NCBI RefSeq assembly: GCF_000027125.1
Contig: NC_017626.1
DNA length: 64,000 bases
Reading direction: 5' to 3' (one strand)
Origin: Escherichia coli 042
Lineage (GTDB): Bacteria > Pseudomonadota > Gammaproteobacteria > Enterobacterales > Enterobacteriaceae
Shown here: positions 2,650 through 50,498 of the stretch, piece after piece
Layout of the letters: each line of letters starts with the position of its first letter
Numbering within the stretch: position 1 is the stretch's first letter
The notes under the pieces: model-generated
Database searches by the model: none
Told to the model about the DNA's origin: nothing
What the model saw: only the letters and a program-made list of their open reading frames with translations
Program-made: the position numbers and the translations under genes

Positions 2650-3859
<1,210 letters not shown>

Positions 3860-3863
<4 letters not shown>

Positions 3864-4510
3864 GCCTCTGCTCCGGGTTTGATCAGCATCAGACCACAGC
3901 CGAACGCGCGGCTTTTGCCATACCCCTGGCTCAGACGTTGCAGAAATAACCCAGGATCGGTGACCGTAAGCATCCCCGTATAATCCACGCTACAGAACTG
4001 GATCAGTTGCCGGGAGTTTTCCCGCCGCAGTTGCTGTTGTCGGTAGGCATCGACCGAGGTATCCAGTAGTGTAAAACCGCTTCTTTCCCCCTGCGCTGCC
4101 AGCCAGTCCAGCGCCGCCTGTTGTTGATGCAACCAGACATCACGCCCTTCCGCCTGCCCCCTCACCTGCCGTTTCGCCTCTATCAGCAGATCGTGGCGCT
4201 TACCCGCTTTACAGACTGTTGGATTCGCCCGCAGGTTGAAACAAAGGGATTGTCCGGTACGCAGCTCCGGCGCAAATGACCGGCATTCGATGGTGAACGT
4301 ATCACTTTCCGCCGGGCGTTCCTGCGACAGGACAAAAAAGCGAAACGCGCCCTGGAGTTCTTCCCGACGATAAAGAAATTGCCTTTCTTTGCCACCCGGG
4401 AAAAGATCCCACAGCCACTGATGCATCACATATTCACCGCGATCCACCAGATGCAGCAACTGCGCAGGCGAAAGCTGGCCGGTATGTAAGGTTATTCTTG
4501 AGAGGTACAT
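3860..4510 (-). CDS. casE: Cas6e / CasE (Cse3) crRNA endoribonuclease
   Basis: Track ORF 3860..4648; I place the start at the internal Met (MYLSRITLH..., about 4510), which is preceded by AGGAGG. C-terminal glycine-rich segment GCGLMLIK typical of Cas6e. Confidence 0.85.
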
Positions 4511-8511: not shown

Positions 8512-11169
8512 TCAACCAACCTTGCCAGTCAATCCTTCCATAGCCGAATACCCGCAACTTTCGTCATCGGTGACTAAAATCACGTTTGCCATCTCCGGAT
8601 CTTGCCGCTGTTCAATGCACCACTGCCTGAACGCATCCCCTTCCAGTAAAGAAAACTCATCCCGATGTTTTTTCCACCAGCTTCGACGCACTCTGACAAC
8701 GCTCATTTCCCATGCGTGAGCACCGGTGGCATAAGGCTTCACCACACCGTCAATACAGGTAGCCAGCCACAGGGAAACAGATTCCTCAGCCAGACGTGTC
8801 GACAGCTTTTCCGGAAGGTAATCGTTGATATTGGCGGCATAGCCAGGCTTGAAGTTCAGGACAAACTTTTTAGCCATTGCGCGATCGCAGTAATATTTGC
8901 CCACTTGCTCCTGCTCACTGCGGGCAAATCCTTCCGGCATTGCCACGTCTTCACCGTAGACTGATTCAATAAGAAGCCGGGCTGCGTGTGGCATCTGAAT
9001 AGCGCCTTGCTCACGCAGCACACGCTGCGTCAGCCAGATTCGCCCATGATCGGGGTAGACATATGCACTGTTACGCATGGCGCTGCCAAACCATTCGTCA
9101 CCCGGAGAGTCATCCCAGACGGGAGCCAGAATCAGCAATTCAGGAGGGGAACGCTCATCTTTTCCGTCACGCTTTAACTGACCATTAATATCGCGGATAT
9201 GCCGCTGTAATCGCCCCGCCCGCTGGATTAGCAAATCAATGTGGGCCAGGTCGGAGATCATTTCGTCCAGGTCACAATCGACGCTCTGCTCTAATACCTG
9301 AGTACAAATAAGGACTTTTCCGGCACGCTGTGAGTTACCTTCTTTACCAAAGCGTGCCAGCGTTTCCGTTTCAATTCGCTGGCGATCGCTAAAAGCAAAG
9401 CGGCTATGAAAAAGTGAAAGGCTGGAAGCGGGAATGACGCCGCGGGCAAGCAGCTGACGATGAACCTTAATAGCGTCATCGACAGAATTCCGGATCCAGG
9501 CGATGCATTTCCCCTGACTTACCGCCGATTCGATATGTGCAATACATTCTTGTTCGCTATGAAGCCAACCCACACACACGTTGCGCTCAACTTCTTTGCG
9601 CGTCGCTACCCGGTGCGAATGCAAATCGGATTTCGTGACATGCGTCAGCCATGGGTAATCATCCTTTTCAAGGAACGGAGCTTCTTGTTGGCCCTCTGCA
9701 CCACGCGCAAAGGCAGCGACGAGTTTGTCGCGCTGCTGTTGAGATAACGTAGCAGAAAGCAAAATGATACTGTTTCCGCCACGCGCCTGCCGCTCAATCA
9801 ATCCTTCAAGAATGCACGACATGTAAGCGTCACAGGCATGGATCTCATCAGCCAGCAGGATTTTTTTACTCAACCCCAGAAGCCGCAGATTATTATGTTT
9901 GAACGGCATCACCGCCATCATCGCCTGATCCAAGGTGCCGACGCCAATTTCAGCCAGCAACGCCTTCTTGTTACTGTCGGCAAACCAGGCCGCACATCCC
10001 TGGCTGAACGCTTGTTCATCCGGTTCTTCTGACCCGACTAAATCACCGGACCAGAGTGATTCATTGAAGCGGTCCATTAATGTATGGGCACTGTGTGCCA
10101 GCACCAGGCTGGGGCGGGATTCTGGCGAATAGAAAGCAAGCCAGGTTTTGACCAGCCGATCGTACATGGCATTGGCCGTTGCCATTGTTGGCAGGCCAAA
10201 AAACAAACCCTGAGCTTTCCCCGCAGCCATCAACCTGTGGACCATGATAAGCGCTGCTTCTGTTTTACCTGCGCCAGTCACATCCTCCAGAATAAATAAC
10301 TGTGGCCCAGGCTGGCTGATATCCAGATCCAGTACCTTTTGCTGTAACGGTGTCGGGTGCTCAATAAAAGGAAACAGTGTATTAATTCCGGTGAAAGGCG
10401 CGGTTTGTGCTTTTGGAGGAAAGACGGTTAAGGCGTTTTGAGCCTGAACTAAAGCCTTCTGCCAGTAATCTTTAATATCCATTGCCTGTGCAACGCGTGG
10501 AAAAAACCGCGTTGACGATCCCGTCCAGTCTGCGAGTACGACGGTTGCAGAGATATACCAGGAAAGTTGTTTTATAAGTTCAACGCCCTCGTCATCATCC
10601 CAGAATGTGGGGATCTCGATGAGCGGGAACAGTGTCTTGATTGCAAGGAGAAAATCTCGTGCGGCAGCTTTGTCTTCAGGCAGAAAATTATCCAGTTCAT
10701 CCATACGATCAGGAGGCTGACCATGATGCCCGGTAGTCATGGGCATCCACATCTCTATTACCCGTTTAAGTTTGCGGGGAGAGAGTGAAGATGAAGGAAG
10801 CAACTCTTCACATTCAATTAAATAATGATTCCACAACCAGTAGCCCAGCGTTGAATGAGAGATCTTTTCGTAATTTTTTCTTGCACTTTCCGGAACCTTG
10901 AGCTGTGGGTGCAGGTAAAGTTGCTGAAAAGAGCGGGCAAATTTTCCAGTATCGTGCCAACACAGCAACCAGGCGAAAAATTGTGCTGCCTGCTCCGTGT
11001 CAGCGATACCTAATTGACGAAAATAGTCAGCCAACCCGAAACAGTTGTTTTTGACCATTAAATAACCCGTCGCGGCTACATCCAGCGAATGCCAGCAAAG
11101 TAGATGATAGTCGTCGCCGCCCTCTTTCTCGCCACGTCGGGTTTTTCCCCAGAAATCAAAGAAAGTCAC
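8512..11169 (-). CDS. cas3: Cas3 helicase-nuclease (HD domain + DEAD/DEAH helicase), type I-E
   Basis: 885 aa; N-terminal HD motif (HSLDVA...H), helicase motif I (GAGKTEA), DExH-like LADEIH, motif VI QRAGRLQR. Confidence 0.93.
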   Translation of the reverse strand: MTFFDFWGKTRRGEKEGGDDYHLLCWHSLDVAATGYLMVKNNCFGLADYFRQLGIADTEQAAQFFAWLLCWHDTGKFARSFQQLYLHPQLKVPESARKNYEKISHSTLGYWLWNHYLIECEELLPSSSLSPRKLKRVIEMWMPMTTGHHGQPPDRMDELDNFLPEDKAAARDFLLAIKTLFPLIEIPTFWDDDEGVELIKQLSWYISATVVLADWTGSSTRFFPRVAQAMDIKDYWQKALVQAQNALTVFPPKAQTAPFTGINTLFPFIEHPTPLQQKVLDLDISQPGPQLFILEDVTGAGKTEAALIMVHRLMAAGKAQGLFFGLPTMATANAMYDRLVKTWLAFYSPESRPSLVLAHSAHTLMDRFNESLWSGDLVGSEEPDEQAFSQGCAAWFADSNKKALLAEIGVGTLDQAMMAVMPFKHNNLRLLGLSKKILLADEIHACDAYMSCILEGLIERQARGGNSIILLSATLSQQQRDKLVAAFARGAEGQQEAPFLEKDDYPWLTHVTKSDLHSHRVATRKEVERNVCVGWLHSEQECIAHIESAVSQGKCIAWIRNSVDDAIKVHRQLLARGVIPASSLSLFHSRFAFSDRQRIETETLARFGKEGNSQRAGKVLICTQVLEQSVDCDLDEMISDLAHIDLLIQRAGRLQRHIRDINGQLKRDGKDERSPPELLILAPVWDDSPGDEWFGSAMRNSAYVYPDHGRIWLTQRVLREQGAIQMPHAARLLIESVYGEDVAMPEGFARSEQEQVGKYYCDRAMAKKFVLNFKPGYAANINDYLPEKLSTRLAEESVSLWLATCIDGVVKPYATGAHAWEMSVVRVRRSWWKKHRDEFSLLEGDAFRQWCIEQRQDPEMANVILVTDDESCGYSAMEGLTGKVG

Positions 11170-11340
11170 AATGTTTTTATCCTTCAGTAAAACTTAAAGG
11201 ATATTTACGCATATATTAAAAATTATCTGTGATATATATCGTTCAATAAAACATTTACATTATGAATAATCAAATAGTTTTCATCCGTAATATATATGAA
11301 TAATAAACATAGGCATAATATTCACATAAACAATATAAAT
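11170..11340. promoter_or_regulatory. AT-rich cas3 upstream region (probable promoter / nucleoid-protein-bound region)
   Basis: About 170 bp of very AT-rich sequence immediately 5' of the cas3 start; H-NS silencing of E. coli cas promoters is established knowledge, its application here is inference. Confidence 0.5.
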
Positions 11341-11406
11341 TAAAAAAGGGTGCAGGAGACCAAACCATCACAATTCAGTACGCGGGGTTTTACCCCCGCG
11401 TGGTGG

Positions 11407-11559
11407 CTACTTCTTCGATTCGTAAGCGAGAACTGCCTTAAACTCCATACCACGTTCTCTGATACTCAACTCACACAACGAGTCGCCTACCATCAGCGTG
11501 AATCCCAGTACTGTACAACACAGTACGATGATTGCCACAAGGGCATATTTTGTCAGCAT
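11407..11559 (-). CDS. Hok/Gef-family type I toxin, 50 aa (HokE-like), unannotated small ORF
   Basis: Hand translation of the minus strand gives [50 protein letters not shown]; single TM helix, conserved Cys and C-terminal AYE motif, GGGAGG SD upstream, GC hairpin just 3' of the stop. Below the track size cut-off. Confidence 0.8.
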
Positions 11560-11823
11560 GTCTTGCCTCCCTGCAAAGAAGAGACTAACATTCGAATTGC
11601 TTAGGTTCGAACGCTGGCCTCAGGTTGATTGAAATATCGCCTGGGGCTTTTGTCCATCTGGAACCTCGCGAATGCTTAACGCCAGACAGCCTCAAGCACC
11701 CAACGCCATTCTATACCTGTTAATTTTCCCTGCGATGTTCACCTTTAAATGCCGGAATGCTGCTCGCAAAATAAAAACGCCCCCATCATTTCTGACAGAG
11801 GCGTTTAATTTATCCGGCAATAT

Positions 11824-12558
11824 TTACCCTTCGTGTAACCCACATTCCCTTTTTAAGCCAAAGAAACGCGTTTCTTCTTCCGCCATGCCGGGTTCCCATT
11901 TACGGGTTGTATGGGTATCACCGACGGATAAATATCCTTCGTCCCATAATGGATGATATTTCAGGCCATGTTTTTGCAGATACTGATATATCGTTCGGTT
12001 ATCCCAGTCGATAATCGGCAGCACTTTAAATACGCCACGCTGAATTGCCAGCACCGGTAAATTGGCGCGACTGCCGGATTGTTCGCGGCGCAGGCCAGCA
12101 AACCACGTTTGCGCATTCAGTTCTTTCAGCGCCCGGTTCATCGGTTCGACTTTGTTGATGTCATTGTACTTTTCAATGCCTTCAACACCCTGCTCCCACA
12201 GTTTGCCGTAGCGCGCTTCCTGCCAGGCGGCGCTTTCGGTAGCGCGGTACACTTTCAGGTTGAGCTTGAGTTTGTCCGTTAACTCGTCAATAAAGCGGTA
12301 GGTTTCCGGGAACAGATAACCCGTATCGGTCAGGATCACCGGGATATCCGGGTGAATCTGATTCACCAGATGCAGGCTCACCGCCGCCTGAATGCCGAAA
12401 CTGGAAGAAAGTACATATTCACCGGGCAGATTATCCAGCGCCCAGGCAACGCGGCCTTCAGCATCCAGTTTTTCCAGTTCGGCGTTAGTTTCTGCCAGCG
12501 CCAGAATGCGATCTACCTTCGGCAGTTCGTTCAGGGCGTTTAGATCGAGTTTGGACAT
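11824..12558 (-). CDS. cysH: phosphoadenosine phosphosulfate reductase
   Basis: Track ORF 11824..12597; start placed at [16 protein letters not shown] (about 12558), 244 aa; ends in the conserved ...ECGLHEG. Confidence 0.93.
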
Positions 12559-12579
12559 AGATTCCTCACTGTTTGCTTT

Positions 12580-12615
12580 GCCTGATGCGACGCTCACACG
12601 TCTTATCAGGCCTAC
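12580..12615. repeat. REP (repetitive extragenic palindrome) element in cysI-cysH spacer
   Basis: GCCTGATGCGACGCTCACACGTCTTATCAGGCCTAC matches the enterobacterial REP consensus. Confidence 0.75.
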
Positions 12616-12633
12616 AAGACCGGGCTGATGGTT

Positions 12634-14346
12634 TTAATCCCACAAATCGCGCGCCGGATCGAGCACCGGGCGAATGATGCCCGCACGCACCGTAAAGTCG
12701 CCGAAGCCTTCACCCGCTTCGCGCTCTTTCGCCCAGCGCCCTATCAGTTCATCAAGCGACGCCAGGATTTCCGGCTCGGTGATGTTTTCTTTATACATCC
12801 GTGGGATACGTGTCCCAATGCGGTTGCCGCCAAGATGCAGGTTGTAGCGACCCGGCGCTTTACCCACCAGGCCCATTTCCGCCAGCATCGCACGACCACA
12901 ACCGTTCGGGCAGCCTGTTACACGCATCACGATATGCTCATCGCTGACACCATGTTTCGCCATTAAATTATCGATGTTGTCGATAAAAGACGGCAGGAAA
13001 CGCTCTGCTTCCGCCATCGCCAGCGGGCAAGTCGGGAACGAGACGCAGGCCATTGAGTTTTCACGCTGCGGCGTGACGGCATTCATTAACCCGCTCTCTT
13101 TGGCGATCTTCTCGATCTTCGCTTTCTCGCTTTCCGGTACGCCGGCGATGATCAGATTCTGGTTCGCCGTAATGCGGAAATCACCTTTGTGGATCTTCGC
13201 GATCTCCAGCAGGCCGGTTTTCAGCGGACGCCCCGGATAATCAAGGATGCGACCATTTTCGATAAACAGCGTCAGGTGCCAGTTATCATCAATGCCCTTA
13301 ACCCAGCCAATACGATCTCCGCGTCCGGTGAACTCATACGGACGGATCGGTTCAAATTTGATCCCCGCACGACGCTCCACTTCTGCTTTAAACGTCTCAA
13401 CCCCAACGCGTTCCAGCGTGTATTTGGTTTTGGCATTTTTACGATCGGTACGGTTACCCCAGTCGCGCTGAGTCGTCACGACGGCTTCCGCCACCGCCAA
13501 GGTATGCTCCAGCGGCAGATAACCAAACTCACTCGCCGTGCGGGCGTAGGTTTTCTTGTTGCCGTGCTCGATGGAAAGCCCGCCGCCCACCAGCAGGTTA
13601 AAGCCCACCAGCTTGCCGTTTTCGGCGATCGCCACGAAGTTCATATCGTTGGCGTGCAGATCGATATCGTTCTGCGGCGGTATCACCACCGTGGTTTTGA
13701 ACTTACGCGGCAGATAGGTCTGACCGAGTATCGGCTCTTCATCGGTGGTGGCGACTTTTTCCTGATCGAGCCAGATCTCCGCATACGCGCGAGTACGCGG
13801 CAGCAGATGTTCAGAGATTTTCTTCGCCCATTCATAGGCTTCCGCGTGCAGCTGCGACTCGTAAGGGTTCGAGGTGCAGAGTACGTTACGGTTCATGTCG
13901 TTAGCAGTCGCCAGCGCATCAAGACCGACCGAGTGCAGCATCTGGTGCACCGGTTTGACGTTCTTTTTCAGAATGCCGTGGAACTGAAACGTCTGGCGGT
14001 TGGTCAGGCGAATGCTGCCATAGATGGTGTTTTCACCGGCAAATTTATCGATCGCCTGCCACTGTTTGGTGGTAATCACCCCACCCGGCAGACGACAGCG
14101 CAGCAGCATCGCATGACGCGGCTCCAGCTTCTGTTCAGCACGTTCAGCGCGGATGTCGCGGTCATCCTGTTGATACATGCCGTGGAAGCGGATCAGCAGG
14201 AAGTTATCGCCCTTAAAGCCGCCGGTCAGACCGTCGTTTAAATCTTCCGCAATGGTGCCGCGCAGGTAGTTGCTCTCCAGCTTCATGCGCTCGGCGTCTG
14301 CCAGTTTTCCTTCGACCACTAAAGGCCCTGGATGTTTTTCGCTCAT
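12634..14346 (-). CDS. cysI: sulfite reductase hemoprotein beta subunit
   Basis: 570 aa; siroheme/4Fe-4S cysteine cluster ([13 protein letters not shown] ... TGCPNGCGR). Confidence 0.95.
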
Positions 14347-50096: not shown

Positions 50097-50141
50097 AAAG
50101 CAACCTCAATAAGAAAAACTGCCGCGAAGGATAGCAGGAAT

Positions 50142-50498
50142 AAAAAAAGGGAGCACTGTATTCACAGTGCTCCCGGTTCGTTTCGCAGCATTCCAGCTAC
50201 TTTTGTTGCTCCCTGCTCATCCTTGACAACTTTTCCTCTGGCCTTGCGGCCAATCGTTCATCCTGAACTATTGCTTCCTGCTCACACCACCCCGATGTGA
50301 TACTTCATCCTGAAGTGTCCCTGGCCTTCCTGGCCCACCGAATCATCCTGACCGGTTCTCATTCTCCATCCTGGAGGTGTCCTTTAACGCGTCCTGCGTC
50401 ATCCTCTTCGCTTCATCCAGAAGCCTTTCCCTGAAACACCATCCTGGTGTGTCCTTCAGAAGTGTCATCATCCTGATGTTCACTTCGTTGTCTGACTC
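50142..50498 (-). ncRNA. csrB: CsrB regulatory sRNA (CsrA-sequestering)
   Basis: About 357 nt with many CAGGATG / AGGA motifs (seen as CATCCTG on the + strand); 5' end GAGTCAGACAACGAAGTGAACATCAGGATG; 3' terminator GGGAGCACTG...CAGTGCTCCC plus U-tract. Track ORFs 50085..50300 and 50377..50565 lie inside it and are not coding. Confidence 0.95.

Follow-up and report, generated by a model that had tools for sequence, protein, structure and literature searches.

The intergenic region between cas3 and cysH in Escherichia coli 042 contains a short minus-strand open reading frame, which raises two questions: does this ORF belong to an intact type I toxin-antitoxin locus, and does that locus serve the CRISPR-Cas genes beside it? 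The window, i.e. the whole stretch of 64,000 nucleotides analysed here (contig NC_017626.1), places the ORF between two neighbours that are also on the minus strand, the cas3 ORF at 8512-11169 and cysH, which ends at 11824. We conclude, with a probability of roughly 0.88, that the ORF belongs to an intact hokX/sokX locus, a type I toxin-antitoxin system of the chromosome, with an mRNA closed by tac/fbi pairing, a block by SokX, coupling through a leader ORF, and a membrane toxin as its product.

Toxin gene and family assignment

The toxin gene is described by two features:

11407-11559, minus strand: hokX coding sequence, 50 amino acids plus stop; protein identical to RefSeq WP_000956458.1
11566-11571, minus strand: hokX Shine-Dalgarno sequence GGGAGG, 6 nt before the ATG at 11559, read from the sequence

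Both are as an earlier sequence-only reading of this DNA had given them, including the translation. Members of the Hok/Gef family are about 50 amino acids long, have a hydrophobic helix at the N terminus, carry a conserved Cys, and show an AYE motif at the C terminus. HokX has about 50 residues, its SLCE and LAYE motifs are conserved in the alignments, and it matches the HOK_GEF profile (Pfam PF01848) with an i-E of 6.3e-10, residues 5-46 aligning to positions 1-42 of the 42-position model. The Hok/Gef assignment, which had been made from the letters alone, is borne out by this profile search, which confirms that type I toxin loci can be recognised by a reader who has only the sequence.

Among the K-12 paralogues, HokE is the closest, as the sequence-only reading had stated, with 78% identity (39/50), followed by HokA with 48% (24/50), HokC and HokD with 37%, and HokB with 32%. 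The best NCBIfam match, the HokA equivalog NF007290, is a misleading label: HokX reaches 53 bits, below the curated cut-off of 89, and we rule out a HokA identity because HokX is far closer to HokE pairwise. The NCBIfam Hok subfamily NF007279 gives a significant score of 39.5 bits (E 3.6e-10), yet below its curated cut-off of 73; PGAP names the protein 'Hok/Gef family protein' despite this score. The plasmid Hok proteins of E. coli are about 42-44% identical to HokX in the tblastn matches sampled, and of 168 matching plasmid records, 155 lie below 60% identity.

The Rfam model RF01794 ('sok') matches 11544-11701 on the minus strand over its full length (1-157), with 109.6 bits against a gathering score of 59 (E 1e-25), and the match at the hokX leader recurs in a scan of the whole window. 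Since its consensus ends in the hok Shine-Dalgarno sequence and AUG, this model describes the leader of the hok mRNA in the sense orientation, not the antisense RNA. Automatic annotation may therefore get the orientation wrong, the model named 'sok' giving the strand of the hok mRNA.

Earlier descriptions of the locus

The sequence-only reading had called the locus unannotated, which does not hold. The identical protein WP_000956458.1 is found in RefSeq in B2, O157:H7 and other strains and is annotated in thousands of genomes, and each related genome examined carries the name 'Hok/Gef family protein' for its copy. A hok/sokX pair between cysH and cas3 or iap has been described in three papers. 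The arrangement with E1-type cas genes keeps hok/sok, referred to as the 'hok sok system' of the CRISPR-I locus (Almendros et al. 2014); strains with the K-12 (E2) cas variant are without hokX. In 90% of urinary isolates hok and sokX adjoin cysH, the K-12-like remainder having sokX alone (PMC12736100). The gene was named hokX and first found in E. coli B, and it lies in the cysH-iap intergenic region in a B2 strain (PMC7232551). K-12 MG1655 itself has sokX (b4701, 2887353-2887411, plus strand) annotated between cas3 and cysH, the position that the sequence-only reading had given for it. Cas3 of the window is only 28% identical to K-12 Cas3, and the window thus carries a type I-E variant (E1-type cas3) other than that of K-12.

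The locus is an intact copy of a system that RefSeq annotation and the literature already cover, and it is not novel. Only three points are mildly new: the canonical mok start is missing and a leader ORF with an overlapping stop is present, IS186 has repeatedly inserted into the 3' hairpin, and the Rfam model has the orientation given above. As it stands, the result matters little. It does assign exact coordinates to each regulatory element of an intact hokX/sokX, for which K-12, being without the toxin gene, is no source.

The hokX mRNA and its folding

The comparisons below draw on a species scan, with one genome per species, that gave 56 loci encoding proteins 50-100% identical to HokX, and on 51 full-length mRNAs aligned and folded as a set. 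The elements of the mRNA in the window are as follows:

11736-11731, minus strand: -35 box of the hokX promoter, weak, ATCGCA
11708-11713, minus strand: -10 box of the hokX promoter, TAGAAT, 6 nt upstream of the GGGUGC 5' end, read from the sequence
11338-11701, minus strand: hokX mRNA, predicted full length about 360 nt; 5' end from the Rfam start and conservation, 3' end from the U-run and the end of homology
11688-11701, minus strand: tac element GGGUGCUUGAGGCU at the mRNA 5' end, paired with 11361-11348 in the MFE fold
11348-11361, minus strand: fbi element GGUCUCCUGCACCC, complementary to tac and followed by U6 at 11347-11342
11381-11400, minus strand: 3'-UTR hairpin CGCGGGG-GUAAAA-CCCCGCG (7-bp GC stem, 6-nt loop), starting 6 nt after UAG; conserved; an IS186/IS421 site

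The start GGGTGCYTGA is common to all chromosomal paralogues and the 51 related loci. A TAnnAT box stands exactly 6 nt before GGGTGC in 51/51 related loci, which lie in varied genomic contexts, and also in K-12 hokB, hokC and hokE. We take 11701 as the mRNA start because this sequence and its spacing from the -10 box hold across unrelated contexts. At the other end, the cas3-, iap- and O157-type contexts cease to be homologous directly behind GCACCC-UUUUUU, and GCACCC is also found downstream of K-12 hokA and hokB. The promoters were assigned by positional conservation over paralogues and orthologues because a generic promoter and terminator scan scored neither the hokX nor the sokX promoter, which counts against the assignment, as does the fact that no local intrinsic terminator hairpin was found before the U-run at 11347-11342. 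The one promoter-like match in that scan is inside the coding sequence and within chance expectation (2.0 +/- 1.3), and its sole terminator is that of cysH at 11806-11775. Two low-scoring Rfam matches at 11766-11866, ctRNA_p42d (24.9 bits against 50) and Spot 42 (19.7 against 80), were rejected, as they correspond to this same cysH terminator.

The predicted transcript, 11701-11338, folds with an MFE of -126.9 kcal/mol (z = -3.17), with its 5' and 3' ends paired. The tac/fbi duplex that could be expected of a hok mRNA is part of this fold; it has -20.6 kcal/mol in the window and from -13.7 to -24.4 across the 51 relatives. Its core, pairs 1-6, is kept in 51/51 relatives with changes from G-C to G-U only, and because this core helix barely varies, covariation is neutral on it. 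Elsewhere, double compensatory changes occur at 19 of the 66 consensus pairs of the 51-mRNA fold. They are seen in the 5' hairpin (19 sequences at one pair), in a GAGGC/GUCUC helix (7 sequences), in a CGAA/UUCG stem-loop overlapping the SokX 5' end (22, 8 and 8 sequences), and at the pair 319/339 of the 3' hairpin (15/51 relatives). This 3' hairpin had been noticed in the sequence-only reading as a GC-rich element following the stop codon, and it is present there as described.

When 30-50 nt are removed from the 3' end in silico, the 5' end forms a local hairpin, GGGUGCUUGA...UUAAGCAUUC (the tac hairpin), in all three truncations, and the 40-nt truncation alone adds a 10-bp leader stem-loop at about 11616-11582. 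In these folding models the mRNA behaves as expected from plasmid R1 hok/sok.

The SokX antisense RNA

An antisense RNA was expected on the plus strand at around 11560-11700, and homology does place SokX within this interval:

11599-11657, plus strand: SokX, 59 nt; coordinates of K-12 b4701 transferred by alignment, 56/59 bases identical
11563-11591, plus strand: sokX promoter, -35 box TTGCCT at 11563-11568, 17-nt spacer, -10 box TAACAT at 11586-11591, 7 nt to the annotated start

The search for a promoter of this RNA has a divided outcome. TTGCCT-17-TAACAT can be read from the sequence and is identical in K-12, whereas the generic scan scored none; the promoter has 8/12 consensus matches and falls under the threshold of that scan. 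Its -35 box is the complement of GGAGGCAA, the hok Shine-Dalgarno region, which shows no variation in the alignment of the 51 relatives. SokX folds into a terminator-like hairpin followed by CUUUUGU, with -21.3 kcal/mol (z = -2.67). Judged by these elements, SokX is a predicted cis-encoded Sok RNA that has its own promoter and terminator and overlaps the hokX leader. According to the K-12 literature, SokX RNA is detected under all conditions tested, and expression is known from K-12 only.

The missing mok start and a 12-codon leader ORF

The mok genes annotated for K-12 hokB and hokC begin directly past a GAGG box, some 50 nt before hok, and Sok overlaps their starts. An AUG is found at -50 or -51 in relatives from Kluyvera, Klebsiella and Enterobacter. 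At this position (about 11610-11608 in the window), UCG stands in every E. coli hokX copy examined, which counts against an active system; hokE is also without the canonical mok start. Upstream of hokX, the hok frame contains no start codon, and a mok frame that overlaps hok and has a start codon, one of the hallmarks of hok/sok, was not found in the leader. An R1-type mok frame is closed by UAG at 11587-11585. A 36-codon ORF starting with TTG (11695-11585) was considered as mok and rejected, as it ends before hok.

What the leader does contain is a short ORF that ends on the toxin start codon:

11553-11591, minus strand: leader ORF of 12 codons; AUG at 11591-11589 (position -32), reading through the hokX Shine-Dalgarno sequence, with a UGA that overlaps the hokX AUG (AUGCUGA)

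This AUG and its overlapping UGA recur in every syntenic orthologue whose leader can be read, and the equivalent AUG in leaders of the hokE type lies at -36, in frame with hok. The region complementary to SokX stops 8 nt upstream of the -32 AUG, which should be near enough to block initiation. We consider the 12-codon ORF a candidate functional equivalent of mok, and see about even odds that it acts as one on the basis of its sequence. Counting against it, the -32 AUG is preceded only by a weak Shine-Dalgarno sequence (UAAG). Moreover, the sokX -10 box is complementary to AUGUUA, and 7 relatives have AUAGUA at that site, still a good -10 (TACTAT). The AUG might therefore be a by-product of the promoter, as it complements the sokX -10 box and these 7 relatives keep the box without the AUG.

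Proposed mechanism

The sequence elements with their conservation and covariation, the purifying selection and the in-silico refolding come from the present analysis; taking the RNA half-lives, the 3' processing, the leader-ORF coupling and the toxicity by analogy from plasmid R1 hok/sok, we propose the following course of events. A weak constitutive promoter (-10 box at 11713-11708) would yield a stable transcript of about 360 nt (11701 to about 11340), in which tac pairs with fbi and closes hokX to ribosomes and antisense RNA alike. Slow trimming at the 3' end would take off fbi; in the trimmed mRNA, the 5' end would snap to its local hairpin and the leader would refold, exposing a stem-loop (about 11616-11582 in the fold truncated by 40 nt) that extends over 11599-11616, the 5' end of the region complementary to SokX. 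SokX (11599-11657, plus strand), which would be short and unstable, would pair with the refolded leader immediately upstream of the leader ORF (11591-11553), and this pairing would both block translation of the leader ORF and mark the duplex for cleavage. Once SokX is exhausted, for example after a stop in transcription, ribosomes would translate the leader ORF, thereby opening the hokX Shine-Dalgarno sequence, and termination at the UGA overlapping the hokX AUG would lead to synthesis of HokX, a predicted 50-aa single-pass membrane peptide that would depolarise the inner membrane.

A broader idea can be offered only tentatively, and we hold it to be doubtful. In the Escherichia hokX/hokE lineage, a minimal leader ORF, of 12 codons in hokX, may replace the long mok, with Sok control exerted by termination-reinitiation coupling. 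As a second possibility under the same reserve, read-through from the hokX promoter into cas3, in the lack of a terminator past fbi, could constitute a SokX-sensitive input to CRISPR-Cas, which would be most plausible in K-12. Because the canonical mok start is missing, hokX and hokE of E. coli lend themselves to a study of how Hok translation is coupled.

Conservation, loss and the possibility of a relic

Twelve of the 56 loci from the species scan are syntenic with cysH, in several Escherichia species, Pseudocitrobacter, Kluyvera, Lelliottia and an Enterobacteriaceae isolate; the gene that comes next is iap or an E1-type cas3. Within E. coli, we surveyed 5426 complete genomes with segments of the locus:

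11560-11720: leader/sokX segment, match in 5413/5426 genomes
11340-11556: hokX coding sequence and 3' UTR, match in 4220/5426 genomes
11340-11556: the same segment with coverage of at least 80%, match in 3417 genomes

None of the 4744 hokX places in the E. coli set is on a plasmid. The leader and sokX of the window are 95% identical to K-12, and the K-12 intergenic region is nearly identical to that of the window from cysH through the leader and Shine-Dalgarno sequence to the hokX ATG, with complete divergence from the next base. As the alignment breaks directly after the ATG, K-12 keeps sokX and the leader and is without the hokX coding sequence and 3' UTR; a fusion there has brought the promoter and leader of hokX to about 85 bp ahead of cas3.

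Many of the partial matches to the coding sequence stop at 11385, within the 3' hairpin. In strain CH4796, an insertion of the IS421/IS186 family lies in this hairpin, with a junction, ...CCC|ATAAGCGCTAACTTAAGGG, that equals the IS186 junctions beside K-12 hokC and hokE. The E. coli B type likewise has IS186/IS421 in the hairpin, and strain PSJ-42 has IS1 within the hokX coding sequence. A junction-specific query found IS186 at hokX in 949 genomes, and partial coverage gives 803 (4220 - 3417); as these counts disagree, we state the IS-disrupted copies as a range of about 800-950, about a fifth of hokX carriers. In the window, the locus runs from promoter to fbi without a break and is free of the K-12 deletion and of the IS186/IS421 and IS1 lesions.

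The locus is thus dispensable, as it is lost in K-12-type strains and hit by IS elements in about a fifth of its carriers, and this counts against reading it as an active system. It could instead be a silenced relic, in which the toxin ORF and RNA structures persist, HokX is never translated for want of a canonical mok start, leaving SokX and the leader as the only parts that are functional or neutral. The UCG in place of the mok AUG in all E. coli copies examined and the frequent loss or disruption with no apparent cost would fit such a relic, and all five hok loci of K-12 are reportedly inactive, according to work cited in PMC7232551. The coding sequence itself points the other way. Across the E. 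coli phylogroups the HokX amino acid sequence is constant and changes are confined to synonymous sites; the comparison with O157:H7 gives 5 synonymous changes and 0 nonsynonymous ones. Over the related coding sequences 50/50 are intact, with dN/dS against the window of 0 to 0.36, which indicates purifying selection. This selection and the recurrent IS disruption are the indirect evidence for a toxic HokX. The retention of the -32 leader ORF and its overlapping stop in the syntenic orthologues also speaks against a relic, and the repeated IS186 insertions, which part fbi from the mRNA, are what would be expected if they disarmed an active toxin gene. We therefore regard a relic as improbable.

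Relation to the CRISPR-Cas genes

Even less probable is that hokX/sokX is an accessory of CRISPR-Cas I-E, either as an addiction module or stabiliser for the cas genes or as a phage-triggered suicide back-up controlling cas3 by read-through. From its place beside cas3, the sequence-only reading had seen in the locus a possible locus-stabilising or phage-responsive element. Indeed, hokX points in the same direction as cas3 and the other cas genes, and hokX and cas3 are separated by the U-run and 168 bp of DNA of 20% GC, with no local terminator hairpin. The short distance to cas3 in K-12 would fit as well, and R1 hok/sok is reported to exclude phage T4. We regard this explanation as unsupported because the linkage of hokX is to cysH and not to cas: the identical HokX protein adjoins iap in B2 strains that have no cas genes, the cysH-hokX synteny in Escherichia species, Pseudocitrobacter, Kluyvera and Lelliottia holds with cas3 present or absent, carriers of the K-12 (E2) cas genes are without hokX, and the leader/sokX segment occurs whatever the cas content. 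A dedicated role for hokX/sokX in the cas module is accordingly not supported. Given the lack of a terminator hairpin, transcription of hokX may nonetheless run through into cas3, and a general role in abortive infection is possible by analogy with R1 hok/sok.

Comparison with named hok/sok systems

The intact hokX/sokX of the window does not differ in kind from E. coli hokX/sokX elsewhere, which likewise lies between cysH on its upstream side and cas3 or iap on its downstream side. With R1 hok/sok, and likewise with K-12 hokB/mokB/sokB and hokC/mokC/sokC, it shares a PF01848 Hok protein, an mRNA of about 360-400 nt with pairing of 5' tac and 3' fbi, a Sok RNA of some 60 nt that is encoded antisense in cis, with a promoter overlapping the hok Shine-Dalgarno region, a GC hairpin just past the stop codon, and the predicted refolding upon 3' trimming. 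It differs from R1 hok/sok in having no long mok frame overlapping hok, the canonical start codon being absent, and in being chromosomal and syntenic across genera instead of plasmid-borne. Post-segregational killing has no obvious meaning for such a chromosomal copy.

K-12 hokE/sokE is alike in its leader architecture, in the 8 nt from the Sok 5' end to the upstream AUG, and in the loss of the canonical mok start. In hokE, however, this AUG lies 36 nt before hok and in frame, which gives an extended Hok of 62 aa, whereas the spacer of hokX is 4 nt shorter, putting the AUG out of frame and creating the 12-codon ORF that stops on the hok start. A further difference is in the tac element, where C7 of hokE pairs with a G in fbi and U7 of hokX faces a U. 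K-12 hokE has IS186 next downstream, and the 3' hairpin is a repeated IS186 target at hokX, hokC and hokE.

Fate of hokX in K-12 and the start of cas3

Homology between the window and K-12 stops exactly past the hokX ATG (L002, a K-12 locus, 3721-3935, compared with window 11556-11560). K-12 thus retains an intact hokX promoter, leader, Shine-Dalgarno sequence (SD), and ATG, which are joined about 85 bp upstream of the cas3 start, and this ATG now opens a 5-codon ORF, MCISL followed by a stop. Since the hokX promoter and leader are fused upstream of cas3 in K-12, this promoter could contribute to transcription into cas3, opposed by SokX.

In the window, 168 bp (11170-11337) with 20% GC, compared to a window mean of 50.5%, lie between the end of hokX and the beginning of cas3. 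This stretch, which is missing from cas-less strains and in whose place another sequence stands in K-12, presumably contains the promoter of cas3, and H-NS is likely to bind it. The window and Ecol_316, its nearest relative, have TTTT at window 11189-11192, whereas O157:H7 and PSJ-42 have TTT. The extra T closes the reading frame from ATG 11212, the cas3 start used by PGAP (window 11169-11212), and Ecol_316 cas3 carries a PGAP frameshift flag. Nevertheless, an 885-aa ORF from GTG 11169 stays open in the window, and because its alignment to K-12 Cas3 begins at residue 6, the window cas3 may be an intact gene whose product has a shortened N-terminus.

Insertion sequences at hokX

IS186/IS421 has repeatedly inserted in the GC hairpin directly 3′ of the hok stop codon (window 11381-11400). 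The same junction (...CCC followed by ATAAGCGCTAACTTAAGGG) is found in hokX of strain CH4796 (L009, about 1500-1525), in E. albertii hokX, and in the K-12 paralogues hokC and hokE, and a junction query suggests that it occurs at hokX in 800-950 of the about 4220 hokX-carrying E. coli genomes. Insertion in the hairpin cuts off fbi, the 3′ element that pairs with the 5′ tac, from the hokX mRNA. The hokX CDS of strain PSJ-42 holds IS1B (L010 1568-2394) and lacks its N-terminal part, which is a second, independent route to hokX inactivation.

The Pseudocitrobacter segment

The cysI-cysH-hokX segment of three Pseudocitrobacter loci (L016, L017, L018) shows 88-92% DNA identity to window 9950-13060, a level that matches other species of Escherichia; one case also has the E1-type cas3, the type I-E variant of the window. 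CysH is 97-99% identical, but the iap protein only about 80%, and Kluyvera is about 80% identical in DNA. These identities suggest that the segment is of mosaic origin or has been exchanged horizontally.

Rfam matches in the window

The match to Rfam RF01794 ("sok antitoxin") has the orientation of the hok mRNA leader (window 11544-11701, minus strand) and covers 157 nt ending with the hok SD and AUG, antisense to the 59-nt sokX annotated in K-12. "Sok" annotations drawn from Rfam will therefore have the wrong orientation and excessive length, an example being "sok_15/sokX" of 152 nt (PMC5331693). Apart from RF01794, CsrB alone among Rfam families scores above threshold within the window; weak sub-threshold matches to ctRNA_p42d and Spot 42 are spurious and come from the cysH terminator.

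Other RNA features in the window
11775-11806, minus strand, cysH intrinsic terminator (14-pair stem and T-run)
50139-50498, minus strand, gene for the sRNA CsrB, full length (383.9 bits to Rfam RF00018)
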